DNA from: Candidatus Woesearchaeota archaeon
Lineage (GTDB): Archaea; Nanobdellota; Nanobdellia; Pacearchaeales; GW2011-AR1
NCBI GenBank assembly: GCA_012798335.1
Contig: JAAZNJ010000005.1
Coordinates: forward strand, 1 to 39,211
DNA length: 39,211 nucleotides
Direction: 5' to 3'
Shown here: positions 1,108-23,336 of the stretch, piece by piece
Layout of the letters: every line of letters begins with the position of its first letter
Numbering within the stretch: position 1 is the first letter of the stretch
Position numbers and translations under genes: made by a program
The notes under the pieces: model-generated
Seen by the model: the letters and a program-made list of their open reading frames with translations, nothing else
Told to the model about the DNA's origin: nothing
The model's database searches: none

Positions 1108-1770
1108 TTATCCTTTAGATTTTTTAGATAGTTTAAATAATGATTCGTAAAATTCCTCTAAGTTATTCCCAAATTTCGCACTGATTCCAACAACTTCATA
1201 CTCTGGAAAAGCTGCTTCAATCTTTTTTACATCAGCTTTCTTTATATCTATTTTATTAGCCACAACTAAAACAGGTATTTTTCTTGCAACTAAATTTCCA
1301 ATTATTGTTATATTAACTTGATTATAAGGATTTTCAGTTGCATCTAAAACCACTACAACAATGTCCATATCATCTAACCATTTTATGCTTTCAATAACTC
1401 CTTGGGTTGCTTCTTTTGCTCTTTCTTTTGCCTCTTTTTTTGACATCTTGTATTTTAAGAATTCTTCATAATCTATTTTTGTAGCTATTCCAGGTGTATC
1501 AATCATTTTAAAAGTCATTTTTTTTCCTTTGTAATCAATCTCAACTTTTTCTTTAAATTGAACTTTTCTTGTTTCATGAGGTATTTTGCTTACTGTTCCT
1601 AATTCTTCTCCTGTAAAATCCTTACAAATTCTATTAACTAAGCTGGTTTTTCCTGCATTTGGAGGCCCATAAAACCCAAGTTTAATCTCTTTTTTATTAT
1701 TAAAAATATTATTGAGTATCCTTCTAAAGAAATTTGTTAGAATTTTTATCTCCATATTATAACTTCTCAC
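1108..1770 (-). CDS. Small GTP-binding protein (TRAFAC-class GTPase)
   Basis: G1 GPPNAGKTS, G3 DTPG, G4 NKID and G5 SAK motifs in the canonical order. Confidence 0.8.
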   Translation of the reverse strand: MRSYNMEIKILTNFFRRILNNIFNNKKEIKLGFYGPPNAGKTSLVNRICKDFTGEELGTVSKIPHETRKVQFKEKVEIDYKGKKMTFKMIDTPGIATKIDYEEFLKYKMSKKEAKERAKEATQGVIESIKWLDDMDIVVVVLDATENPYNQVNITIIGNLVARKIPVLVVANKIDIKKADVKKIEAAFPEYEVVGISAKFGNNLEEFYESLFKLSKKSKG

Positions 1771-1843
1771 TTTTAGTTTATAAATATTTCACCTATAAGA
1801 CTATATTGTTCTTATCTTATTACTTATATTTTATTATTTGAAA

Positions 1844-4501
1844 TTAATTTGAAAGAGGCATTCCTGTATTTTTATTTGCATGTTTTTTAGAGGCATATTT
1901 TATCTGTTCTCCTGTCCATCCTGCTTTTTTAAGTTCAGCACTAATTTCTCCTTCTTTTTTACCTCTTTTTCTTTCTGCTTCAATAAACAAAACTAAATTA
2001 TAAAGCTGATTTTGGTCTTTAAATAAATGTTTTTCATATTTATTTTTATACCAATTAGCTAAAATTATCCAAGTTATTATACCTATTACTACAATTATCC
2101 CTGATATTAAAATTATAAGTTTAGTATTATCTTTTACTTCTACAGGAACAGGAGTTTCAACATCTAAATATGAAAGTGCAGGTGAAATAATTGCGTTAAA
2201 ATTTAAAGAATCTACATTCTGTGTTGTTGCAAAACTTATTGTTCTTGTTTCAGGAGAAATATCTATTTTTACATATCCATTATTCTCATTATAAGAAAGA
2301 TTTCCATCAAAAATTAAATTGTCATATTTTTTTAAGATTAAAGTTGAATTTAATATATTATCATTTTGATTTTCTATTTTTAATGTATAAAACTTTTCAA
2401 TTAGATAATCTTGATTGTCTACTCTTTTATTTATTTCTTTAAAAGTTAAAGATAATTTTTTATTTAATGTTTGCCAATTATAAATTGCATCTTGATATTC
2501 TTCAAGATTTGAAGAGTTATAACTCTCGTCTATCAAAGCAGGCTCTATTTGGTTTTTTTGAGGGTATACTGGTAGAGGAACTTGGGTTTGTGATTTTATA
2601 TATACAGAATCAGGTATATTCATTGTTGAAAGGTTAGATAAATATAAAGCATATTCATTAGAGGTTATATTTGAAGAATTAATTCTTGATTTAATTAAAG
2701 AAATCATGTTCTTATTTTCATTTATTTTTAATATCCTATAAATTTCAGATTTCTCAAAATTGTTTAAAGACATAGAATTTGAATTTAATTCAGAAATAAT
2801 TTTATTTAATTTACTTTCTTCTTCTAATAACATAATAGGCAAAGCATTAACAGCTGAAACTACCTCAACTTTGAAAGATTTTGAATATTCTTTATTAGAA
2901 GAATCATAAGCTTTTACTGATATGGTATAATTCCCTAAAGAAGAATAACTATGGCTAGCTTTAGGAACTGTTGTTTGTATTGGAGAACTTCCGTCCCCAA
3001 AATCCCAATAATAAGAATTTATACCTTTTGTGTTATTTACACCTATCTCAAACTGAGTAGAATAATTCACAGGAACCATTAAAGGATAAATCCAAAATAA
3101 AGCATCATTGCTTATTAAAACACTAACAACTTTTGAGAATATAAGTCTTGTATCAAAATACATCTTTAAGGTGTAATTTTTTGATGTAGTGGATATTGGC
3201 ATATTAAATCCGATATTATTCAAATAAATTTTTTGATAAGAATTTGTTGTTATATTTGCATGAACAACATTCAAATCATAAATATTATTAGTTTGTGTTA
3301 TCACTCCTGCTTTAAATCCTAAGTTTAATGAATCTAAATTTATTGTTTGGTTTTTATTTGTTATAAAATTTATAGGGATTATACATCCTTTTGAACAATT
3401 GTTATTATAATTACTATCAACATAATCTTTTATTGCTGATTCAACACTTATGATATCTGGATTTATCTTATTTATTGAACTAGAATTTAAAATAAAACTT
3501 CCAGTTGTGTTATATTTTTCTTGTCTAGCATAAATATCAAAATCTAAATTTCCTTGGAGTTCATTTAAAATTATAGAAATACCACAAGGATTATCAGATT
3601 CATATTTAATTTTATACTCTGTAGCATTACTATCTCTTGGACTAACACAAACAAGATATTCCTCATTTTCAAATGTCGGATAGGTAACATTACAAAAGAT
3701 TTCATTTTCTCCATCTGTTGTGGCTAAACAAGAAGCAGATCTTGTATTTTCTTCATTTAATATAGTTAAATTGAAAGAAGCTTTCTTTGTTCCATTTACT
3801 GTAGCTCCAAGCATTAAACCAGGACTATCTTTTAAAATCATCTTTTGGCAATAAGCATTTCTTGTATTACCAAAAGTAGCATAATCTATGGCTTTATCTT
3901 CTTCAAAGCATCCATAATTTCTATCCCCATATTCCTTTGTTCCAATATTTGACTGCCAATCTATAATTTTATCATTAAATAAATCAATCTTTAATGGAGG
4001 AAGTTCTGATTTATCATTATCAGAAGTTACATTTAAAGTGAAAGAATCAATTTCTGTTAATAAAGAGTTAGGAGGTGTTGTTATAACAAATGCAAATAAA
4101 TTATCTTGAATTTCATTACTTTCTATTGTTTTTGATTTTGATATTGAAGGATTTGATGATTTATAAAAATCTTTACAATCTGAAGGAGAACAAGAATAAT
4201 TAACTTGAGAATTTACTGATTTTTTTAACATATCTAAAAGAGATAAAGTTTTGTTAAAAGAAATATCCCCTAATAGAAGACTCATCTTTATTAAAGAATT
4301 TGTAGATTCATTTACAATACTCATATTTAACCAGCCATTTAAAGTTTCATTTGAAGAATAAACTGTTGAGATAGAATAACTCTGGTTTGCACTTGCATTT
4401 CCCAAGGTTACAGAACAAGATATAAATGATAAGAGAGATACAAAAATAAAAAAATTAAATGCAATTGCTAAACTTATAAAAATTGTATTTTTTTTCACCA
4501 T
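1844..4501 (-). CDS. Large Asn-rich surface protein with PKD domain, C-terminal TM anchor and short cytoplasmic tail
   Basis: N-terminal hydrophobic signal/TM (IFISLAIAFNFFIFVSLLSFISC). PKD signature YYWDFGDGSS...HSYSSLGNYTISVKAYDS. Many NxS/T sequons. C-terminal TM (LIILISGIIVVIGIITWIILANW) followed by a Lys-rich tail. Confidence 0.7.
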   Translation of the reverse strand: MVKKNTIFISLAIAFNFFIFVSLLSFISCSVTLGNASANQSYSISTVYSSNETLNGWLNMSIVNESTNSLIKMSLLLGDISFNKTLSLLDMLKKSVNSQVNYSCSPSDCKDFYKSSNPSISKSKTIESNEIQDNLFAFVITTPPNSLLTEIDSFTLNVTSDNDKSELPPLKIDLFNDKIIDWQSNIGTKEYGDRNYGCFEEDKAIDYATFGNTRNAYCQKMILKDSPGLMLGATVNGTKKASFNLTILNEENTRSASCLATTDGENEIFCNVTYPTFENEEYLVCVSPRDSNATEYKIKYESDNPCGISIILNELQGNLDFDIYARQEKYNTTGSFILNSSSINKINPDIISVESAIKDYVDSNYNNNCSKGCIIPINFITNKNQTINLDSLNLGFKAGVITQTNNIYDLNVVHANITTNSYQKIYLNNIGFNMPISTTSKNYTLKMYFDTRLIFSKVVSVLISNDALFWIYPLMVPVNYSTQFEIGVNNTKGINSYYWDFGDGSSPIQTTVPKASHSYSSLGNYTISVKAYDSSNKEYSKSFKVEVVSAVNALPIMLLEEESKLNKIISELNSNSMSLNNFEKSEIYRILKINENKNMISLIKSRINSSNITSNEYALYLSNLSTMNIPDSVYIKSQTQVPLPVYPQKNQIEPALIDESYNSSNLEEYQDAIYNWQTLNKKLSLTFKEINKRVDNQDYLIEKFYTLKIENQNDNILNSTLILKKYDNLIFDGNLSYNENNGYVKIDISPETRTISFATTQNVDSLNFNAIISPALSYLDVETPVPVEVKDNTKLIILISGIIVVIGIITWIILANWYKNKYEKHLFKDQNQLYNLVLFIEAERKRGKKEGEISAELKKAGWTGEQIKYASKKHANKNTGMPLSN

Positions 4502-6498: not shown

Positions 6499-6712
6499 TT
6501 ATCAATTGTTTAATTGTAATTTAAACTCTTCTTCAAATTTCATTTAGTTTTTTTAAACACTTCTTTAAAAATTTGAAAAATTTAAATATAATTCATACTT
6601 AAAGGTATAAAGACAGAGACATTCAATAAAATGCCAAAAGTAATATTTAAACTGGATAAAGAAAAAGATTTATTTAACATTTGGGAAACCTGTAATAAAA
6701 GTTCATCATGGT

Positions 6713-6967
6713 ATGATCATAAAAAAATTACCACAAATAGATGCTAATAAAAATTATTCTGTAAATCTTTACGGGACAAGAAGAGAAGGAAAAGATAAGT
6801 ATATTCTTTACAATGGTGGAACCTTACTTGTCAATGAACAGATGAAGAACTTTGTGGAAGAAATAAGAAAAAGAGGATTTAGATTAAATGATTACCCTGA
6901 AAATCTTAAATTAAAGGCTGAAACATTTGGAAGAATCTTAAAAGCAGGGGGTTTCCTAATTGAATGA
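6713..6967 (+). CDS. Small hypothetical protein; possible winged-helix / RRE(PqqD)-like peptide-binding protein
   Basis: 84 aa. Its TGA overlaps the next ATG (ATGA at 6964-6967). The pattern of short beta strands (YSVNLYG, KYILYNG, TLLVNE) followed by helices, ending GRILKAGGFLIE, resembles PqqD-like RREs. By-eye inference only. Confidence 0.35.
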   Translation: MIIKKLPQIDANKNYSVNLYGTRREGKDKYILYNGGTLLVNEQMKNFVEEIRKRGFRLNDYPENLKLKAETFGRILKAGGFLIE

Positions 6968-7629
6968 TAACTAAAAAAGGAAGATTTTTGATAAGACACA
7001 AAGAAATTGATAGCAAATATATAGAATCTTTTGATTTTGATAAATTAGAAGATAAATATCAAGACATTAAAAAATTTTATTCTTTTGAAAAAGATTTAGG
7101 TTTAATTAGAATTTGTTTTATTTATAGTCCTGAAGAATTTTTATTTTTTACTGGAAGAGAATTTAATCAAAATTGGATTTGTGCGATGGTTGGATATCAT
7201 AATACAATAAATATTTTTTCTCCATCAATTATTGAAAAGATTACAACTCACAAGAAGGAGAGCATTTTTAACACAATAGTTCATGAAATATCTCATCTGT
7301 TTTATGGATATTCAATGTTAGCAGATTTTCCTTTATTTAATGAGGGAATTGCAAAATATCATGAGAATAACAAATGTAATAACAAAATTAATTTTAATCT
7401 TCCTTCACTAAAAGGAGGAAAAGATTCAATTTATGATTATGGTGTAGGGCATTTGATTGTTTGCTCAATTATGGAGCATTTTGGAAATGAAGGTGCAAAA
7501 AAGATAATTAAGTTTTTAAAAGAGTCTTCTACTGAAATGAGTGAAGAAGAATTATTTAATCTATTCAAAAAAATATTTGAAATTGATGTAGATTTATTAA
7601 TAGAACTGAAAGGAGGTAAAGAAAAATGA
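6964..7629 (+). CDS. Gluzincin-type zinc metallopeptidase (peptidase MA-like)
   Basis: VHEISHLFYG (HExxH) followed 19 residues later by NEG (PLFNEGIAKY). This matches the thermolysin-like HExxH...NE third-ligand spacing. No signal peptide. Confidence 0.6.
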   Translation: MITKKGRFLIRHKEIDSKYIESFDFDKLEDKYQDIKKFYSFEKDLGLIRICFIYSPEEFLFFTGREFNQNWICAMVGYHNTINIFSPSIIEKITTHKKESIFNTIVHEISHLFYGYSMLADFPLFNEGIAKYHENNKCNNKINFNLPSLKGGKDSIYDYGVGHLIVCSIMEHFGNEGAKKIIKFLKESSTEMSEEELFNLFKKIFEIDVDLLIELKGGKEK

Positions 7630-13249: not shown

Positions 13250-13453
13250 ATGAATAATCTAGCTAGTCTAGTTGAAAGTATAGACGGGCTTTTTATAAAA
13301 AGATCTCATCCTGACAGAGTAGTCCTTTCCTATCAAGAGAAAAAATTACTTGAACAATATATATCCACAGAAATTAATTGTTACGATTGTGATTCTTGTA
13401 ATAGTTGTGGTTCTGGGGATTGTAATTCTTGTTGTGAAGTTGTTGATGATTAA
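13250..13453 (+). CDS. Cys-rich small peptide B (candidate RiPP precursor)
   Basis: 67 aa. Cys-free 43-aa leader-like part, then CYDCDSCNSCGSGDCNSCCEVVDD (7 Cys, mostly CxxC period-3 spacing, acidic tail). Its stop is 11 nt before the radical SAM ATG. Confidence 0.6.
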   Translation: MNNLASLVESIDGLFIKRSHPDRVVLSYQEKKLLEQYISTEINCYDCDSCNSCGSGDCNSCCEVVDD

Positions 13454-13464
13454 TCTAAAAAGGG

Positions 13465-14550
13465 ATGGTAAGAAAGATTTTTATCCAATGGGATTCAACG
13501 AATGATTGTAATCTTCGTTGTAGTCATTGTTATCATAATAGAGAAGGAGAAGAACATTCTTCTCATAAACAGGGATTAAATGCTATGTCTTTAGAAGATG
13601 TTATTTTAATGATTAATGATCTAAATGAAACCGCAAAAAGATGGTCTATGAAACCAAGATTTCAAATTTCTGGAGGAGAACCTTTAATGAGAAAAGATCT
13701 TTATTCTATCTTGGAATATACTAAAAATCTTAAAATGGAAGTAAGAATATTAACAAATGGAACTTTGATAACCGAAGAAAAAGCAAGGGATTTTTATGAA
13801 TTAGGAATTAGAAGATTACAAATTTCTTTAGACGGAAATAAGAAGAGACATAATCTTATAAGGGGTCAACCTTTTGCATATGATCTAGCCATTCAAGGAA
13901 TAAAAAATTGTGCAATTAATAATATAGAAGTTACAGTTTCTATGACTGCATTAAAATCAAATATACAAGATTTTGAAGACGTAATAATTAATTCTATTAA
14001 AGCAGGAGCAAAATATGTAGGAACAAAATCTTATGTCCCAAATCCTTTATTAGGTGTTAATGATCCTGAATTCCTGGATTGTGAAGATTTATACCTTTTG
14101 TATAAAAAAACGAGGGATTTAGAACAAAAATATTCTAAAAAAATTAATGTATTACAAACAGAAGTTTTATGGCATTTAATGCAATGGGATACTAAGATAA
14201 AAAAAGAAGCAAGAGAAAAAGATCTTTTTTTAAGTGGTTGTGGAGCAGGATTTTCTGGCCTTTCAGTTTTATCAGATGGGACAGTTTATCCATGTAGAAG
14301 ATTACCACTTCCTATAGGAAATATTAAAGAGGGATTTGCTAATTTAATGTTAAATAACCCTATTCTTAAAGATTTAAGAGATTTTGAAAAAATGAGAGCT
14401 AAAATGGATAATTGTCAACATATCCCTTATTGTAGGGGTTGTAGAGCAATTGCTTATGCAACAACTGGAGATTACATGGCTAAAGATCCAATGTGTTATA
14501 AAGAATTGGTTACTCCAAAAGATATTCAACCTAGGGTAATTAGAAGATGA
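13465..14550 (+). CDS. Radical SAM enzyme with C-terminal SPASM-type auxiliary Fe-S domain
   Basis: CNLRCSHCY (CX3CX2C) at residues 15-23. GGEPL SAM-binding motif. C-terminal C-x12-G-x4-C (CGAGFSGLSVLSDGTVYPC), then CQHIPYCRGC ... DPMCY. Confidence 0.9.
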   Translation: MVRKIFIQWDSTNDCNLRCSHCYHNREGEEHSSHKQGLNAMSLEDVILMINDLNETAKRWSMKPRFQISGGEPLMRKDLYSILEYTKNLKMEVRILTNGTLITEEKARDFYELGIRRLQISLDGNKKRHNLIRGQPFAYDLAIQGIKNCAINNIEVTVSMTALKSNIQDFEDVIINSIKAGAKYVGTKSYVPNPLLGVNDPEFLDCEDLYLLYKKTRDLEQKYSKKINVLQTEVLWHLMQWDTKIKKEAREKDLFLSGCGAGFSGLSVLSDGTVYPCRRLPLPIGNIKEGFANLMLNNPILKDLRDFEKMRAKMDNCQHIPYCRGCRAIAYATTGDYMAKDPMCYKELVTPKDIQPRVIRR

Positions 14551-15059
14551 ATACTAATGAAATAATTAAAACTTGTTTAAAAGATTTAGAGCCTAAGAAT
14601 GTTTTAGATTTAGGAATTGGAAAAGGAAGATGTTCTAAAATTTTTTTGAAAAAAGGGGTTGAAATTATAGGGGTTGATTTAAAAGATTATAAAATTCCAG
14701 GTATAAAATTTGTTAAATCTAATATAAAAAATTTTGATTTTAAAGAAAATTTTGATTTAATTATAGCTTCTTTAGTTCTTCATTTTTTAAATAAAGATTT
14801 ATCCCTTGAAATAATAAAAAAAATAAAAACCTTTACAAATAAAAATGGGCATAATTTTATTTTAACAATGAATAAGAGGGATAATCTTTTTAAAAAAAAC
14901 AAAAATAATTTTTATTTTGATGAAGAAGAACTTAAAGAATTATATAAAGATTGGGAAATAATCAAATCAGGAAATTTTGAAACCGATTTGGAAGAACATG
15001 ATAATCTAAAACCTCATAAACATAATCTTTCATTTATACTAACAAAAAAAGCTTATTAA
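14547..15059 (+). CDS. Class I SAM-dependent methyltransferase
   Basis: Motif I VLDLGIGKG, acidic end of beta-2 (IIGVDL), motif II-like LIIASLVLHF. ATGA overlap with the radical SAM stop. Confidence 0.8.
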   Translation: MNTNEIIKTCLKDLEPKNVLDLGIGKGRCSKIFLKKGVEIIGVDLKDYKIPGIKFVKSNIKNFDFKENFDLIIASLVLHFLNKDLSLEIIKKIKTFTNKNGHNFILTMNKRDNLFKKNKNNFYFDEEELKELYKDWEIIKSGNFETDLEEHDNLKPHKHNLSFILTKKAY

Positions 15060-17718: not shown

Positions 17719-18414
17719 TTAAATTTCAATTATTTTCATCTTTCCGGGATTAATTATTCTTGTCCCTTCAAAATTAACTTCTCCAGGAATATGTATATGT
17801 CCACAAATAAACAATTTTGGTTGAATTTTAATTATATATTTTTTCAAAATTTTTGAACCCATGTGTCCAACATAAGATTTAATAAATTCTGGTGGATTTG
17901 GATTAAAATCTAATATTTTATAGGGGGGGAGATGAGATAAGATTATATCTACTTTTTGACTCTTTTTTAAAAAAGTACCTAATTTTTTTTCATCATCATT
18001 TGCTCTTTTTTGGGTATTTTCATTGTCTGGTTTATACTTTTTGGCCCACCATTTTTCAACAAAAAAATCAAATCCAATAATTTTAAGGCCTTTTATTTTT
18101 ATCTCTTCCTTATCACAATGGATTATTCCTTTTTTCTTCATTAAAGAAATTATTTCAGATTTTGCAAGTTCTTCAGCATTTCCTAAACTTGCTACTATGG
18201 GACATTTAAATTTAATTAATTCTTCAAAAAATTTTTCAGATGATTGGATTATCTCTTCTTTAGCTTCTTTAACAGAACCTCCTTCAAAAATCATTTTTCT
18301 TAATTTGTCTCCTTTTGCAAAATCCCCTGCAACCAAAATTAAATCTATCTTCTCATTAGTCTCTGGAATTTCTCCATGTGCATCAACTGATAAGAGTATT
18401 TTCATTTTAGACAT
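17719..18414 (-). CDS. Calcineurin-like metallophosphoesterase
   Basis: Motifs SVDAHG (DxH), AGDFAKG (GD), LGNAE (GNHE variant), SHLPP and CGHIH (GHxH). Start moved from the GTG at 18537 to MSKMKILL (ATG 18414), because the family begins just before the DxH strand. Confidence 0.7.
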   Translation of the reverse strand: MSKMKILLSVDAHGEIPETNEKIDLILVAGDFAKGDKLRKMIFEGGSVKEAKEEIIQSSEKFFEELIKFKCPIVASLGNAEELAKSEIISLMKKKGIIHCDKEEIKIKGLKIIGFDFFVEKWWAKKYKPDNENTQKRANDDEKKLGTFLKKSQKVDIILSHLPPYKILDFNPNPPEFIKSYVGHMGSKILKKYIIKIQPKLFICGHIHIPGEVNFEGTRIINPGKMKIIEI

Positions 18415-18582
18415 AAATTTATACTTACAAATAACAAAACGAAAAAAGTATTTAACTTTTTCTATCCTAAATAAAATTAACAATAATCTGCGTATTGAAT
18501 CCAGTCTTCTTTCTTCTTCTTGTTGTCTGACCCACACCCAACTAACTTTGGAGGTATTAACTTCTTCCTCTTTTCGGGTTTT

Positions 18583-19698
18583 TTATCTTTCATAGAAACA
18601 ATATGGATCCTTATGTTTAAAAGTTTTATGTATACTATATGAAGAAGCTTTACACCCTCCCAAACAATGTTCTTTTTTGTTACAACTCTTACATTCTTCA
18701 GGTAAGAAATCTTTAATAAACTTATATTTATTTTTAGAATTCCATATATCTTTAAGATTATCTTTTAATATATTTCCCATCTTAAACTTTTTAAAAGGTA
18801 ACAATTGACAAGGATAAACATCTCCATTGGATTCTATAATCATCTTGCTAAATCCTCCAGAACATTTTCGGGTTATTATTTCTTGTTTTTTCTCACCCAA
18901 AAGAAAACAAAAAGTATGGTCAAAAACAATCTCTGGGGTTTTTATTTTCTTGGATAAACTAATAAGCTTTTTTGTTACTTCCTTAAACTCTAAAGGAGAT
19001 AACATTGAATCAATGAAATTCTCTCCTTCCCCTAAAGGATAGAATTTAGAAAATTGTAAAGCTTTTACTTTCGTTTTTTTAAGTATTTCTATATATTCTT
19101 CTAAATATGGGAGAAATTGTTTTGTAAGAGTGGTATTTATTGTAATATCTATCTTATTATCAGTTAATCTTTTTATATTTTGGGTGGTTTTTTCAAAACT
19201 CCCCTCTTTTCTAATAAAGTCGTGAATTTTTTTAGGACCATCTAAACTAACATTTAATTTTAAAGTTTTTCTATATTTTTTAAAAAGAGGGAGAAGTTCT
19301 TTTACTTTTTTGGAGTTATAAACATTTGTAAATAAAGTAACATTGCAATTTTCACATAAGATAGGAATTATTTCTTTAATTCCTTCTTTAATTGTAGGTT
19401 CACCCCCAGTAACTAAGACTTCAAAAATTTTATTTTTAACGATTAATTTTGATATAGTTATTAATTCTTCTTTTGATAATTCTTCTTTTTCTAAATTTTT
19501 TTTATTTAGATAGCAATGTTTACAATTTAAATTACATTTTTTTGTTATTCTCCATTGAATTCTTAAAGGTAATTCAAATCCTTTTTCATAAATTGTATCT
19601 ATCTCTTTTTGATCTAAATTTTCAAAGAAGTATCTTCTATTTTTTTTATCGAATAAAATGAAACCATTCTTTTCTTTTCTTCTTATTTCTTCTATCAT
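18583..19698 (-). CDS. Radical SAM enzyme with canonical seven-Cys SPASM domain
   Basis: CNLNCKHCY (CX3CX2C) after a ~50-aa N-terminal extension. GGEPT. C-x12-G-x4-C (CSGGFSKMIIESNGDVYPC), then CKSCNKKEHCLGGC (CX2CX5CX3C), then DPYC. Confidence 0.9.
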   Translation of the reverse strand: MIEEIRRKEKNGFILFDKKNRRYFFENLDQKEIDTIYEKGFELPLRIQWRITKKCNLNCKHCYLNKKNLEKEELSKEELITISKLIVKNKIFEVLVTGGEPTIKEGIKEIIPILCENCNVTLFTNVYNSKKVKELLPLFKKYRKTLKLNVSLDGPKKIHDFIRKEGSFEKTTQNIKRLTDNKIDITINTTLTKQFLPYLEEYIEILKKTKVKALQFSKFYPLGEGENFIDSMLSPLEFKEVTKKLISLSKKIKTPEIVFDHTFCFLLGEKKQEIITRKCSGGFSKMIIESNGDVYPCQLLPFKKFKMGNILKDNLKDIWNSKNKYKFIKDFLPEECKSCNKKEHCLGGCKASSYSIHKTFKHKDPYCFYER

Positions 19699-20372
19699 TT
19701 TAATGGGGGTAACAAACTCGATTTATTTTTTTCAATATCTTTCATTATTTCTTTAATTAATCCTATTTCCCTTATATCAGAAAATTTTACTTTTTTGTAT
19801 ATTTGTTCTGTTTTTTCTGGGAGGTAATTAATTAAGTAAGAGATTTTTTTTGGATTAGCATATTCTGAGATGTCCAACCTTCTAAACCCCAATTCAATAA
19901 TTCTATCCATAAGATACTGAATTGAGAGAATTGCTGATTCAAGATCGTTTTTTTCTAATCCCTTTCTAACATTTATAGAAGTTCTTTCGACCAAATCGTA
20001 ATCTCCCCCTATAATTGTCTGTTCTTTCCAGGCATCTTCTTTTAAATTTTGCTTTTTTGCACAATTTATTAAATCTTGATAAATTCCATTTGGATCATAA
20101 ATAGGTTTTGAATTCCTAAATCGATCAATAATCCTAACTTCTTTTAAAGAAATTGCATTCAATATGTTTATTGGATCTTCAAAATAAATTTCAAATATTA
20201 AACCAGAATCTCTAATAATTCTTCTTGGAAGATGTTCTTTTAATACATATAAATCTACATCTGAATTTAATGTTATTTCTTTAGCTCCGCTTCCAAATAT
20301 CCCTATAGCCTTTGGAGAAAATTCCTTTGTTAATTCATTTTGAACTTTTTTTATACTTATTTTATGTACCAT
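19695..20372 (-). CDS. Pol-beta superfamily nucleotidyltransferase with C-terminal helical domain (KNTase-like architecture)
   Basis: GIFGSGAKEITLNSDVDLYVL fits the G[GS]-x(9-13)-DxD signature. ATGA overlap with the radical SAM start (19695-19698). Confidence 0.7.
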   Translation of the reverse strand: MVHKISIKKVQNELTKEFSPKAIGIFGSGAKEITLNSDVDLYVLKEHLPRRIIRDSGLIFEIYFEDPINILNAISLKEVRIIDRFRNSKPIYDPNGIYQDLINCAKKQNLKEDAWKEQTIIGGDYDLVERTSINVRKGLEKNDLESAILSIQYLMDRIIELGFRRLDISEYANPKKISYLINYLPEKTEQIYKKVKFSDIREIGLIKEIMKDIEKNKSSLLPPLK

Positions 20373-21517
20373 TTTAATCCTTTATATATCCCTAAAAATA
20401 ATCCTTTAATTACATTTAGTGTTTGTTTAAGGTTATTGCTCTCTTTATCTATATTACAAGATAAATTTAAACTATCCCTTCTAGAAATTTTAAAGCTTTT
20501 AGACTGTTTAATCATCCTAAAAGCATAACCTTTCATACCAACTCTTTTTTTTGAAAAAGGATAATATCTCACAATTTGGGCAAATTCATTGGAAATTCTA
20601 TCTTTAATCCAATCTTGTTCTCTTATGTCTCTACATCCACCAGAAAGATCAAAACAATTTGAAGAATCAATAATCTGAGATATACTAAAACCCTTTAGTT
20701 GATGGGATAATATTCCTTCCAGAGAATCATTTAAAATAAATTTTATCTTTTCTAAATCTATTAAAGGGATAGAATCCAATGATTCTTTTAGAGTAACTAA
20801 AGATTTTACTCCAAACTTTAAATGTAAACACGCAGTTTTTGGATCCGGTAAGTAAAAGATGTTATATCCTTTATCTTTTAACCTCCACACTAGTTCACTT
20901 TCCATGGCATAATCATTTTTTCCACTACTTCTAAATCCCCCAACTTCTTTTAAAGCAAGAGTATTATAAATTCCATAACTAGCTCCGAGAGAAATTGGGA
21001 TTAAGGGGAATTTATCTTTAGAAGAGATTAATTCTTCTGGAAAGGAAGTTAAAAACCAAGAATTAATTCCTTTGGACATATCAATTTTCCCTATATTTTC
21101 TAATGGAACAAAAGAAGTGGGAAATGGAAGTCGATTATACGCTGGGAAGATTACTGCGCCAGTATCTTTTTTAGTAAATTCTATATAAGACAAAATTTTT
21201 TCAATTGTTTTTTCATTATAAAAAACAGAATCATCGTCTAATATTAAATGCCAGGGAGATTTAATAAATTCTAAAGCATATCTTCTAATTCCTGAACACC
21301 CTAATCTTTTGTCAGACTTAAAATATTTAAAACCATATTCCTTACATTTTTTTTCAATATTTTTTGACTGTTCTATTTTAGAATTATCATCTACCACCAG
21401 AACATCTGGTTTATAAGATTGATTATCTATTGAATCTAAAGTCCAGCTTAAAGGAATTCCATAAGGAAGATTATATCTATTGTGGGTACCAATCAATATA
21501 GATAACTCTTTATCCAT
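20357..21517 (-). CDS. Family 2 glycosyltransferase (GT-A fold)
   Basis: LSILIGTHNRYN first strand, VLVVDDNS, and the DxD motif in LILDDDS. Overlaps the downstream nucleotidyltransferase by 16 nt. Confidence 0.75.
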   Translation of the reverse strand: MDKELSILIGTHNRYNLPYGIPLSWTLDSIDNQSYKPDVLVVDDNSKIEQSKNIEKKCKEYGFKYFKSDKRLGCSGIRRYALEFIKSPWHLILDDDSVFYNEKTIEKILSYIEFTKKDTGAVIFPAYNRLPFPTSFVPLENIGKIDMSKGINSWFLTSFPEELISSKDKFPLIPISLGASYGIYNTLALKEVGGFRSSGKNDYAMESELVWRLKDKGYNIFYLPDPKTACLHLKFGVKSLVTLKESLDSIPLIDLEKIKFILNDSLEGILSHQLKGFSISQIIDSSNCFDLSGGCRDIREQDWIKDRISNEFAQIVRYYPFSKKRVGMKGYAFRMIKQSKSFKISRRDSLNLSCNIDKESNNLKQTLNVIKGLFLGIYKGLKWYIK

Positions 21518-21576
21518 AAAAATTATAGCAATTTATTCTTTAAAAATATTCCTTTTCAATTGTTACTTTATAATGA

Positions 21577-21996
21577 TTACTTTGGCTTAATTGTAATTAG
21601 ATTTCTCTTTTTTAAACAAAGCTTAAATAATTCTTCTTTAGTCCTAACCCAAATTATTTTATCTAAATAATCTTCATATTTTATTAAAATCTTCTTGAAT
21701 ATTCTTATGGGGGAGAAGTAAGCATATTGGTAATTATCTCCTTTTTTTGCTTCAACATCTACTTCATACACATATCCTTCTTTTGCAGGTTCGTAATCTC
21801 CAACAATCATTAATTTCTCTGGAGGTAAAGCAAAATCAGTTTTCCCTTTGAGAGACTTACCTAAAGCGTAAAGTGCAGCTTGATTAAAATTGTCTGTAAG
21901 AAATATTGCTTTTTTATTTTCAAAATCAGTCTCTCCTTTTGCTAATTTCGGTTTCAATACCTTCAAATTTTGTGGAGAACCATGATATAATTTCAT
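21577..21996 (-). CDS. Hypothetical protein with N-terminal LYHGS motif
   Basis: 139 aa beginning MKLYHGSPQNL, then ...AIFLTDNFNQAALYA...GYVYEVDV. Same strand as the GT2 gene and 59 nt upstream of it. Confidence 0.45.
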   Translation of the reverse strand: MKLYHGSPQNLKVLKPKLAKGETDFENKKAIFLTDNFNQAALYALGKSLKGKTDFALPPEKLMIVGDYEPAKEGYVYEVDVEAKKGDNYQYAYFSPIRIFKKILIKYEDYLDKIIWVRTKEELFKLCLKKRNLITIKPK

Positions 21997-22095
21997 TTTT
22001 TATAGAAATTCTTAATTGAAGGATCAAATTTTATAAAACAAGAAAATAAGAATGATTTTGACATAGTTATTAAAGGAAAATATAATGGGATAAAG

Positions 22096-22511
22096 ATGTC
22101 ACAATTGTTAGATAAGGTAACTAAACCTAAAAAAATCAACTTTTAATCGGAGAAGGAAAGTATCATAAAAGGAGATTTAAAATTGGAGAGAATATTATTT
22201 GTCCTTTTGCCATTCATTATTCAGATGATTTTTTTGAAATTTCAAAAAGAAAAAAATTAAAAAATAAAAAAGAAGTAATAGCAAAAATTATTGATTCTTC
22301 TGAATCTCTATTTTCTCCAGCAGTGTATAAAATAAAAACAAAAGAAGGTAGAGTCTGTTTTTTAATAAGTTATTTTGTTGGGCATGTACATCTTTTTCAA
22401 AAAGGAGATATAATTAAGTTTAAAGCTCCTCTTTTTGAATTTTCTAAAAATTTAGTAAAAAGAGAAAGTTTTGTTATCCCCATTCAAGGATCTTGGGTTG
22501 AAATAGACTAA
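22096..22511 (+). pseudogene. Frameshifted gene of unknown function (or a homopolymer assembly error)
   Basis: ATG at 22096 reads MSQLLDKVTKPKKINF* (stop 22144-22146). A long start-less ORF in the -1 frame is open from 22131 to 22511 (..IGEGKYHKRRFKIGENIICPFAIHYSDDFF...WVEID*). Adding one A to the A7 run at 22129-22135 fuses them into about 139 aa. Confidence 0.45.
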
Positions 22512-22520
22512 TTTTCTTTT

Positions 22521-23282
22521 TTAAAATACTTGTTCCTTTATAAAAGCGTTTATTTTTTTCCAGTATTCTTCAATTAAATTTAAAGAAATTGCATGTCCTG
22601 ATGAATGTTCTATTAACTCTGTTTTTTTAATCTTTTTTATTATGTTATTTATATGTTTTATAGAAACAACTTCATCTTTAGGATCGTGGAAAATTAAAAC
22701 AGGACAATTTAATCTAACTAGATAGTAAGATGGAGAAATTTCTTTAAATTTCTTTAATTGAACGTTTAATTTATTAAATTTTATTCTATAAAAATTAAAA
22801 TATGCTCTTTTTACAAAATCAATTAAATGAGAAAGATCTTGTTCAGTCTTATCTTGATTATGTTTTTCAAAATCTCAAACAGGAGAAAAAAGAATAATTT
22901 TATCTATTTTATTTTTTAATTTTGCACTAATGCCCCATGCAATTGCTCCACCAAAACTACCTGTTAAGAGGATTAGTTTTTTATTATTAAAATATTTATT
23001 TTTTAAATCCTATAAACTTAATGCTTTTTTATCATCTAATTTAACAATAAAATTTGCAAGTTCTTCAATTACATTTTTCTCTAAAAATGACCTTTACTTT
23101 GAAAAAACCCACTATATCTTAAATAAAAAACATTAAACCCCTTATTAAAAAAACTTCATTAAATCATCTTCTTTATTTGAACTAGGAAATCCTGGAAGAA
23201 TAAGAATAGCATCTGCAGGTTCATTATGTGTTAAAAATTCAAAGAAAATATTTCCATAATAAGCTTTAAGGATATTAACCAT
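22521..23282 (-). pseudogene. Alpha/beta-hydrolase (esterase/peptidase-like) pseudogene
   Basis: Reverse-strand reading from ATG 23282 gives MVNILKAYYGNIFFEFLTHNEPADAILILPGFPSS..., a LILLTGSFGGAIAWG nucleophile elbow (GxSxG), ...CPVLIFHDPKD... and ...EHSSGHA. It is interrupted four times: by two compensating frameshifts in homopolymer runs (plus-strand A7 at 23147-23153 and A5 at 23083-23087), by an in-frame TAG (23010-23012), and by an in-frame TGA (22875-22877). Confidence 0.7.
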
Positions 23283-23336
23283 CTTAAGTTATTGGTCCTT
23301 AAATTTAAAAATATATAGTAAAAGTTAGTTTTGTTT

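Follow-up and report, generated by a model that had tools for sequence, protein, structure and literature searches.

Radical S-adenosylmethionine (SAM) enzymes with a SPASM domain are mostly known as maturases of peptides or proteins. In mycofactocin clusters, an enzyme of this kind is encoded together with a family 2 glycosyltransferase (GT2), and nucleotidyltransferases (NTases) of the ANT and Lin types are the products of stand-alone resistance genes. A third relevant case is fosfomycin biosynthesis by Fom1, Fom3 and FomD, where, according to an excerpt of PMC8158854, a transient cytidylylation is followed by a radical SAM step and by hydrolysis. Here, we describe three consecutive genes coding for a GT2-family enzyme, an NTase and a radical SAM/SPASM enzyme (hereafter, the trio), found on the minus strand of a 39,211-nt stretch of DNA (the window) from a Candidatus Woesearchaeota archaeon. 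A full-text literature search returned no description of such a combination; PMC7159879, which matched a search for SPASM, glycosyltransferase, nucleotidyltransferase and radical SAM, deals in its matching part with unrelated conflict systems.

The GT2 gene (20357..21517, 386 aa) comes first and overlaps the NTase gene (19695..20372, 225 aa) by 16 nt (20357–20372), while the stop codon of the latter shares the letters ATGA (19695–19698) with the start codon of the radical SAM gene (18583..19698, 371 aa). Both overlaps were read directly in the sequence, and all five minus-strand open reading frames (ORFs) and spacings listed in a preliminary description of the locus proved correct. That description also took the three genes for a coupled unit, and the same arrangement is indeed found elsewhere. 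In a metagenome contig of 3,987 nt (locus L005), genes for a GT2 of 396 aa, an NTase of 223 aa and a radical SAM enzyme, the last one truncated by the contig end so that its downstream side is unseen, follow each other in the order of the window and with identical overlaps of 16 and 4 nt, the proteins sharing 46%, 50% and 60% identity, respectively, with those of the window. Since order and exact overlaps are repeated, the arrangement goes beyond chance. Further hints come from contig sizes. A GT2 relative (P0028) and an NTase relative (P0006) both lie on contigs of 7,080 nt, the NTase relatives P0003 and P0008 sit on contigs of 29.6 and 57 kb, respectively, and the radical SAM relative P0031 on one of 13.2 kb. 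GT2 and NTase of the L005 type, together with a fused version of the protein encoded upstream of the trio (see below), were all found on contigs of 86,525 and 33,994 nt, which represent near-identical strains and are not independent evidence. Overall, the trio is a very rare unit that is conserved and, judging from gene order and overlaps, coupled; it is present at two loci with readable DNA context (the window and L005) and probably in a third lineage. We regard it as a single accessory operon of small size, the three genes of which are translated in a coupled manner.

How rare this unit is can be best appreciated from its NTase, for which 9 relatives (48–75% identity) were retrieved from among 5.8 billion protein clusters. 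It was found in none of the 60 close relatives of the genome holding the window. Among 400 sampled genomes of the phylum there was no full-length match, and the partial matches seen in 14 of them scored at most 26 bits, 12 covering the N-terminal catalytic part alone. A scan with a pattern derived from the family alignment gave nothing in 185,579 species representative genomes, nothing in viral contigs, and a single locus, L005, in metagenome contigs. The GT2 has three relatives among the same 5.8 billion clusters. When compared with 1.84 billion representatives, the radical SAM enzyme found one relative of 51% identity (398 bits), then two matches of 215 and 189 bits, and then a broad cloud.

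The GT2 (PF00535, E = 7.1e-13) carries a DxD motif (D94-D95-D96) and a DYAMESEL stretch, both invariant in 5/5 homologues. Beyond the catalytic part there is an extra conserved C-terminal region (approximately residues 240–386), in which C295 and C354 are likewise invariant in all five; within residues ~286–354, the invariant cysteines lie in GGCR and near ISRR...C, accompanied by an invariant W, E, R pattern. The enzyme is devoid of membrane segments (maximum 19-residue hydropathy 1.05), and its structural neighbours in the Atlas are ordinary soluble GT2 proteins. No membrane-like segment was found in any of the five proteins of the locus either (maximum 1.26).

The NTase would consist of an N-terminal catalytic domain of the pol-beta type and a C-terminal helical domain resembling KNTase_C/HEPN. 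In Pfam, it gave sub-threshold matches alone (Polbeta/NTP_transf_2, with scores of 22.7 and 19.9 bits where the cut-offs are 26.9 and 21, respectively), although Polbeta was matched by 9/10 members of the family, and the residues of the pol-beta catalytic motif (G27, S28, D38, D40 and E61) are invariant in 10/10 sequences. Structural comparison of an AF2 model (mean pLDDT 74.6) returned two full-length matches: ANT(4') (Z 10.6, 192 residues aligned, root-mean-square deviation (rmsd) 9.3) and 3c18, an uncharacterised protein (Z 10.3). Residues 110–225, the C-terminal domain, matched LinB (Z 8.4), HEPN (Z 8.2) and ANT(6) within a range of Z 7.8–8.4, values to be read with the reservation that helical bundles score high by chance and that the assignment to KNTase_C/HEPN is one of fold alone. 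Foldseek and Atlas searches agree with these matches. By sequence, the family gave no match to KNTase_C (PF07827) or PF14907 at E <= 1, and a profile search of PDB sequences yielded chance-level matches only. Taken together, the motif and the model make it a putative KNTase-like, two-domain nucleotidyltransferase of the pol-beta type.

The radical SAM enzyme combines a radical SAM core (PF04055, E = 3e-20) with a SPASM domain (PF13186, E = 2.7e-14), both above the cut-offs, as in maturases of peptides that are synthesized by ribosomes and modified post-translationally (RiPPs). Invariant in its alignment are the CxxxCxxC cysteines (C55, C59 and C62) and those of the SPASM domain (C279, C297, C339, C345, C349 and C367), and the core is preceded by a conserved extension of ~45 aa. 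The best NCBIfam match was GeoRSP, at 140.7 bits versus a cut-off of 400, and no protein of the trio reached any NCBIfam cut-off. In a quick maximum-likelihood tree (IQ-TREE), the enzyme grouped with P0031 and P0181 (SH-aLRT 97) and joined P0032 and P0108 loosely (90), standing apart from the other radical SAM enzyme of the window. This tree was built from 94 rows, namely 91 of P0031–P0130 and P0181 with lengths of 300–480 aa plus three proteins of the same genome, and double-domain and fragment matches were left out. The three nearest relatives have no strong family match themselves, and among the 48 nearest matches, just P0046 and the double-domain P0034 pass any family cut-off (MftC). The models of the heme and heme d1 SPASM enzymes were missed widely (AhbD, 127.3 bits versus 500; NirJ2, 105.1 versus 500). 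The preliminary description was unable to place the combination in any described pathway, which agrees with the small clade of its own that the enzyme forms and with the NCBIfam results. All three enzymes of the trio retain their catalytic residues and are predicted to be catalytically competent.

What might such enzymes do together? We suppose that three soluble cytoplasmic proteins would act serially on one acceptor encoded outside the cassette. As for the nature of this acceptor, we tentatively favour a soluble small molecule or glycoconjugate of the sugar or nucleotide type rather than a ribosomal peptide, while rating this somewhat short of an even chance. A non-peptide acceptor is favoured because the expected companions of a peptide pathway were not found. 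At 20–25 aa, the ORF lists of the window and L005 (in the latter on the upstream side, the contig ending inside the radical SAM gene) contain nothing Cys-rich or conserved in or beside the trio, in line with the absence of a precursor-like small ORF reported in the preliminary description. There is neither a protease nor an exporter gene beside the trio, and a PqqD-like RiPP recognition element (RRE) was not detected in the first 50 residues of the radical SAM enzyme (no Pfam match at E <= 10) or in its orthologues P0031 and P0032. The structural matches of the NTase to ANT(4')/3c18 and LinB/ANT(6) speak for the same preference. A sugar or nucleotide acceptor is favoured in particular because, for each of the three enzyme types, there are precedents of action on sugars, and because the full-length structural relatives of the NTase nucleotidylate sugar hydroxyls.

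In this scenario, the GT2 would transfer a hexose from a nucleoside diphosphate sugar; the KNTase-like enzyme might then O-nucleotidylate a hydroxyl of the product, as ANT(4') and Lin do with sugar hydroxyls, giving a nucleotide handle or an activated ester; and the SPASM enzyme could abstract a hydrogen atom for an oxidation, a rearrangement or the formation of a C–C or C–S bond. The phosphoesterase encoded downstream might possibly remove the nucleotide, its link to the trio being weak. The full sequence of steps, that is, a precursor-less SPASM pathway on a carbohydrate in which a glycoside is formed, tagged with a nucleotide, subjected to radical chemistry on the tagged sugar and released by the phosphoesterase, seems to us an unlikely version. 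If it were true, a DPANN archaeon whose genome measures 0.6 Mb would be making a small metabolite, perhaps for use on its host or against it; the radical SAM protein would be the first of the SPASM enzymes to have a nucleotidyl-glycoside as its substrate, and ANT/Lnu-type nucleotidyltransferases would be newly used in biosynthesis, not resistance.

We are aware that a number of findings weigh against a sugar- or nucleotide-type acceptor. The AF2 model of the NTase is weakest in its catalytic domain, over much of which the pLDDT is 45–67; the rmsd of its full-length structural matches exceeds 9 Å, and the structural matches as a whole also include HEPN/MNT entries. Pol-beta NTases, moreover, are also known to AMPylate proteins. 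Regarding the radical SAM enzyme, most of its named NCBIfam matches are peptide maturases, all of its sequence-nearest relatives with solved structures (SkfB, E = 1.5e-20; anSME, CteB, PqqE and SuiB) act on peptides or proteins, and its conserved N-terminus of ~45 aa shows a loose alignment to the N-terminal end of P0040, a protein with a weak match to PqqD (E = 1.9e-4). The genome (G000) encodes three further radical SAM enzymes similar to peptide maturases, so peptide chemistry is common here. There are just two readable loci, L005 ends inside the radical SAM gene, and a precursor might be encoded downstream of it in that locus. Finally, the phosphoesterase is widespread without the trio, which weakens the handle removal step.

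Several of these points lead directly to the main competing explanation, according to which the trio matures a protein or peptide. The SPASM enzyme would cross-link or oxidise a side chain of a target encoded in trans, or of a protein of the cassette itself, and the GT2 and NTase would glycosylate and nucleotidylate that target, in a RiPP-like or mycofactocin-type pathway with no precursor in cis. We consider this possible, yet on balance rather unlikely. Besides the solved relatives and the N-terminal alignment just mentioned, it draws on NCBIfam matches that include MftC, ACGX, DynA, AlbA and PapB, on a full 7-Cys SPASM domain, on the two invariant cysteines in the C-terminal region of the GT2, and on the pairing of a GT2 with a radical SAM/SPASM enzyme, as known for MftF and MftC. 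Cys-rich peptides are also encoded in this genome, as is another GT2 paired with a radical SAM enzyme, a CcpM-like one. NTase-like tailoring enzymes are described in RiPP clusters, namely for lasso peptides (PsmN; excerpt of PMC9266682) and daptides (excerpt of bioRxiv 10.1101/2023.03.08.531785). However, that no precursor, RRE, protease or exporter was found speaks against a peptide pathway, and the mycofactocin models were missed by far (MftC, TIGR03962, 122.6 bits versus 265; MftF, TIGR03965, 19.3 versus 280). Likewise, the family PF14907, unmatched by the NTase as noted above, is presumably that of PsmN.

The Cys-rich peptides of the window deserve a separate comment, since the preliminary description had proposed as one reading that the trio tailors them. 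Peptide A (13250–13453) directly precedes a radical SAM/SPASM gene of its own (13465–14550), which is accompanied by a gene for a TehB-like methyltransferase. Orthologues of this radical SAM enzyme (56–59% identity) were found in 3/60 relatives, with the methyltransferase gene after the radical SAM gene in all three and a small Cys-rich ORF before it in two (L076 and L078). None of these three genomes (G018, G031 and G052) encodes the trio NTase or an orthologue of the trio radical SAM enzyme. Peptide A has its own maturase in a cassette that occurs without the trio; therefore, these peptides do not need the trio for tailoring, and the proposed reading is not supported. The cassette of the window spans 13250–15059, and its radical SAM–methyltransferase pair recurs at loci L076, L077 and L078 (genomes G052, G031 and G018, respectively). 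After this pair, L077 and L078 have a gene for a 221–222-aa protein, whose N-terminus resembles that encoded at 6631–6747 of the window, at the locus of peptide B.

Two genes flank the trio, and the preliminary description treated all five as one string. Downstream, a calcineurin-type metallophosphoesterase (17719..18414, minus strand; 231 aa; PF00149, E = 6e-10) is encoded within an ORF of 17719–18537. Its likely start is the internal ATG at 18414, 168 nt past the radical SAM stop codon, and the gene probably has its own promoter. Matches to this protein (29–45% local identity, 35–39% for the best full-length ones) are present in 28/60 relatives, all of them without the trio NTase. It also matches the PADLOC candidate PDC-S10 (E = 4.8e-19) and phrog_1649 (E = 3.9e-18), and a PDB sequence search with it returned nothing. 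Upstream, 59 nt separate the GT2 start from the stop codon of a gene for a 139-aa protein with an LYHGS motif (21577..21996, minus strand), hereafter LYHGS.

The closest relative of LYHGS (P0013, 70% identity) comes from a JGI contig of 1,279 nt, and its reading frame runs on into KMKILLSVDAH, 11/11 residues of which are identical to residues 3–13 of the phosphoesterase of the window. Judging from this frame, LYHGS in that genome abuts, or is fused to, the start of the phosphoesterase, with no room for the trio. This junction and the occurrence of both flanking genes without the trio demonstrate that the trio behaves as a discrete presence/absence unit, inserted or deleted between two commoner genes. 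Repeats at the borders of the cassette amounted to just short, AT-rich, chance-like matches. Of the five-gene string, the trio thus holds together, while the flanking genes do not belong with it in the same way: the 33 further LYHGS loci found in species genomes all lack the trio GT2 and NTase (two, L026 and L033, show distant, non-orthologous radical SAM matches of 25–30% identity), and, given its distribution, membership of the phosphoesterase in the trio system is doubtful.

Upstream of LYHGS, between it and the RtcB gene, the window contains a decayed alpha/beta-hydrolase-like gene (22521–23288, minus strand). Its pieces, including a GSFGG nucleophile-elbow segment, are set apart by TGA and TAG stops in frame and by one frameshift or more. 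Such decay is in keeping with a variable region. On the opposite strand (22006–22511), there is a stop-to-stop frame of 126 aa, preceded by a 46-aa piece and ending in a GHVH segment reminiscent of how a small phosphoesterase ends at its C-terminus; this frame is possibly what remains of another gene.

LYHGS itself is a neighbour rather than an obligate member of the trio. It has 15 relatives of similar size. There is no variation in M1-K2-L3-Y4-H5-G6, at Y43 or at Y77, and 14/17 sequences keep E78, so the H-Y-E triad of ADP-ribosyltransferases (ARTs) is represented by H5, Y43 and E78. Its AF2 model is of high confidence (pLDDT 89.9). Foldseek gave nothing at E <= 0.001, the top matches being Arr, and in an exhaustive structural search most of the 50 rows listed were ART-superfamily entries, judged by titles. 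The best match was the NAD lobe of Tpt1/KptA (Z 6.6, 72 residues aligned, rmsd 1.8), and also among the best were an Rhs ART toxin at Z 5.8 and, with 103 residues aligned, Arr at Z 5.7; these Z values are modest, and the weight lies in the consistency of the list and in the H-Y-E pattern. DUF3990 matched residues 1–50 alone and stayed below its gathering score (21.7 bits versus 32.2), and a profile search against PDB sequences gave chance-level matches only. With Arr, LYHGS shares its size (~140 aa in Arr), an N-terminal Y-H-G-S/T motif, a tyrosine in mid-protein and an acidic third residue; unlike in Arr, to which it is 17–19% identical, the third catalytic position varies. The model and the triad support a minimal protein of the ADP-ribosyltransferase fold, which we predict to be a separate NAD-using transferase sharing the locus.

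LYHGS adjoins the trio in both readable loci, the copy of L005 being divergent and fused to a C-terminal domain. Such fusions were seen in L005 (312–1511, minus strand) and L026 (7944–9182, plus strand); they are 49% identical, carry a conserved HExxH within the added ~260 aa, and have a gene for the same thiamine pyrophosphate-dependent enzyme after them, in L026 without the trio. The HExxH domain of L005 was also compared with a 221-aa HExxH protein of the window (6964–7629), but the similarity was not significant (BLASTP E = 0.77). The neighbours of LYHGS in the 24 loci scanned are mixed: MazF, MNT/HEPN, HsdM, a resolvase, ABC transporter genes, aminoacyl-tRNA synthetases and TopoVI. At L032 (7057–9604) and L033 (5990–9589), in genomes labelled as Woesearchaeota, it lies between genes for an ABC-transporter ATPase and permease with 4-nt overlaps.

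Keeping this neighbourhood in mind, it is tempting to view the trio, LYHGS and the phosphoesterase as a conflict or defence-island module, a nucleotide-based immune or toxin system. It could, for instance, produce or alter a molecule derived from a nucleotide, in the manner of viperin-like radical SAM enzymes or signal-making NTases. LYHGS stands beside the trio in both readable loci, even if its orientation and architecture differ between them, and it has MazF, MNT/HEPN pairs, HsdM or a resolvase as neighbours in 5/24 scanned loci. As an indel, the trio is rare, and the region around it contains decayed genes. The Foldseek matches of the NTase include Hailong HalB (E = 0.11), and PADLOC candidates were matched not just by the phosphoesterase but also by LYHGS (PDC-M13A, E = 1.2e-4) and the NTase (PDC-S09, E = 2.8e-5). 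However, these are candidate (PDC) families, and the matches of LYHGS and the NTase span ~40 N-terminal residues. Validated-system models of PADLOC gave nothing beyond them except a match of the radical SAM enzyme to pVip (54 bits), which reflects generic radical SAM similarity; viperins lack a SPASM domain. Furthermore, PHROGs contain no match for LYHGS, the GT2 or the NTase, most neighbours of LYHGS are housekeeping or transport genes, and GT2 enzymes are atypical as defence components. We therefore find a defence role doubtful.

A role in the cell envelope or N-glycosylation, akin to the modification of surface proteins or glycans that the preliminary description gave as its second reading, with the GT2 and NTase building or decorating a surface glycan and the radical SAM enzyme modifying a sugar of it, strikes us as improbable. 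A GT2 profile run against PDB sequences found weak matches, of which TarS, dolichol-P-mannose synthase and PglI were nearest (E 0.009–0.33; the single GT2 sequence matched nothing), the JGI name of one GT2 homologue is "glycosyltransferase involved in cell wall biosynthesis", and large surface proteins and pili are encoded in the window. Against this, STT3/AglB (PF02516), the oligosaccharyltransferase of Agl N-glycosylation, did not turn up in the incomplete genome (rated 87.6% complete), the GT2 has no hydrophobic segment, and flippase, lipid-carrier or sugar-nucleotide genes do not adjoin the trio. The NTase is of the pol-beta type, not a sugar-1-phosphate nucleotidyltransferase, and its absence from all 60 close relatives argues against a core envelope function. 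Lastly, a chance juxtaposition of three unrelated genes, conceivable in small archaeal genomes where tight packing and short overlaps are common, is close to refuted by the order and overlaps repeated in L005 at ~50% identity, by the similar rarity of the three proteins and by the matching sizes of the contigs that bear their homologues.

The organism itself fits the picture of a compact archaeal genome. G000 comprises 609,790 bp in 68 contigs, and the window corresponds to its contig C63, with a GC content of ~26%. The window includes archaeal genes such as those for OapB/OapC, RtcB, archease, an archaeal-type ProRS and type IV pili, and loci with relatives of one window gene are labelled Woesearchaeota, Pacearchaeota or Nanoarchaeota; this gene content and these labels point to a DPANN-type archaeon as the host of the window. 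Two sequencing runs each contain ~5% of the sampled words, their contigs being short fragments that are mostly <90% alike, and the sequencing-run search listed no RNA run containing such words. The second GT2–radical SAM pair of the genome lies on contig C28 (locus L074, 7179–9523, minus strand); its GT2 (252 aa) is nearest to TIGR04283 (94 bits versus a cut-off of 182), and its radical SAM protein (443 aa) is CcpM-like, of the peptide-maturase type (202.8 bits versus 500). At 1671–3951 of the same locus, an AMMECR1–radical SAM–Memo triad adjoins the gene for the RuBisCO large subunit.

Whatever its acceptor, the trio offers a compact test case, either for a new class of SPASM substrates or for a peptide pathway with its substrate in trans. 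The retention of a rare cassette of three accessory enzymes in so small a DPANN genome hints at a specialised product of relevance to a host-dependent life. Since the cassette is very rare, its practical value is modest.

Turning back to the described systems, the trio has the core and SPASM domains of a RiPP maturase cassette but not the adjacent precursor. Pseudomycoidin, whose PsmK/PsmN cluster combines, in the excerpt of PMC9266682, peptide tailoring with an enzyme of the nucleotidyltransferase type, offers a likeness to the NTase; unlike pseudomycoidin and SynChlorMet, the trio comes without an HprK-like kinase, precursor, peptidase or exporter, and its radical SAM enzyme misses the cut-offs of ScmE and ScmF (104.1 and 83 bits versus 400). 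With mycofactocin, it shares a SPASM enzyme and a GT2 in one small cluster and weak matches to the MftC and MftF models, at the scores given above. It differs from mycofactocin in lacking the MftA peptide, the MftB RRE, MftD and MftE, in having a pol-beta NTase added and in residing in an archaeon with a 0.6-Mb genome. The NTase resembles ANT(4'), LinB, ANT(6) and 3c18 in its predicted pol-beta catalytic and C-terminal helical domains and in the GS...DxD...E set of residues, yet it is ~10% identical to them, has no KNTase_C match by sequence and, unlike the resistance genes, is the middle gene of a coupled operon. As a working analogy only, with no homology claimed, the trio may be likened to the logic of fosfomycin biosynthesis (excerpt of PMC8158854), an NTase gene standing directly before a radical SAM gene with a phosphohydrolase downstream. 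The enzyme families are different: Fom3 is a B12-dependent class B radical SAM enzyme, Fom1 has a transferase unlike KNTase, and the calcineurin type of phosphoesterase does not include FomD. Overall, the trio is best filed as a radical SAM/SPASM tailoring cassette that stands outside any named system.

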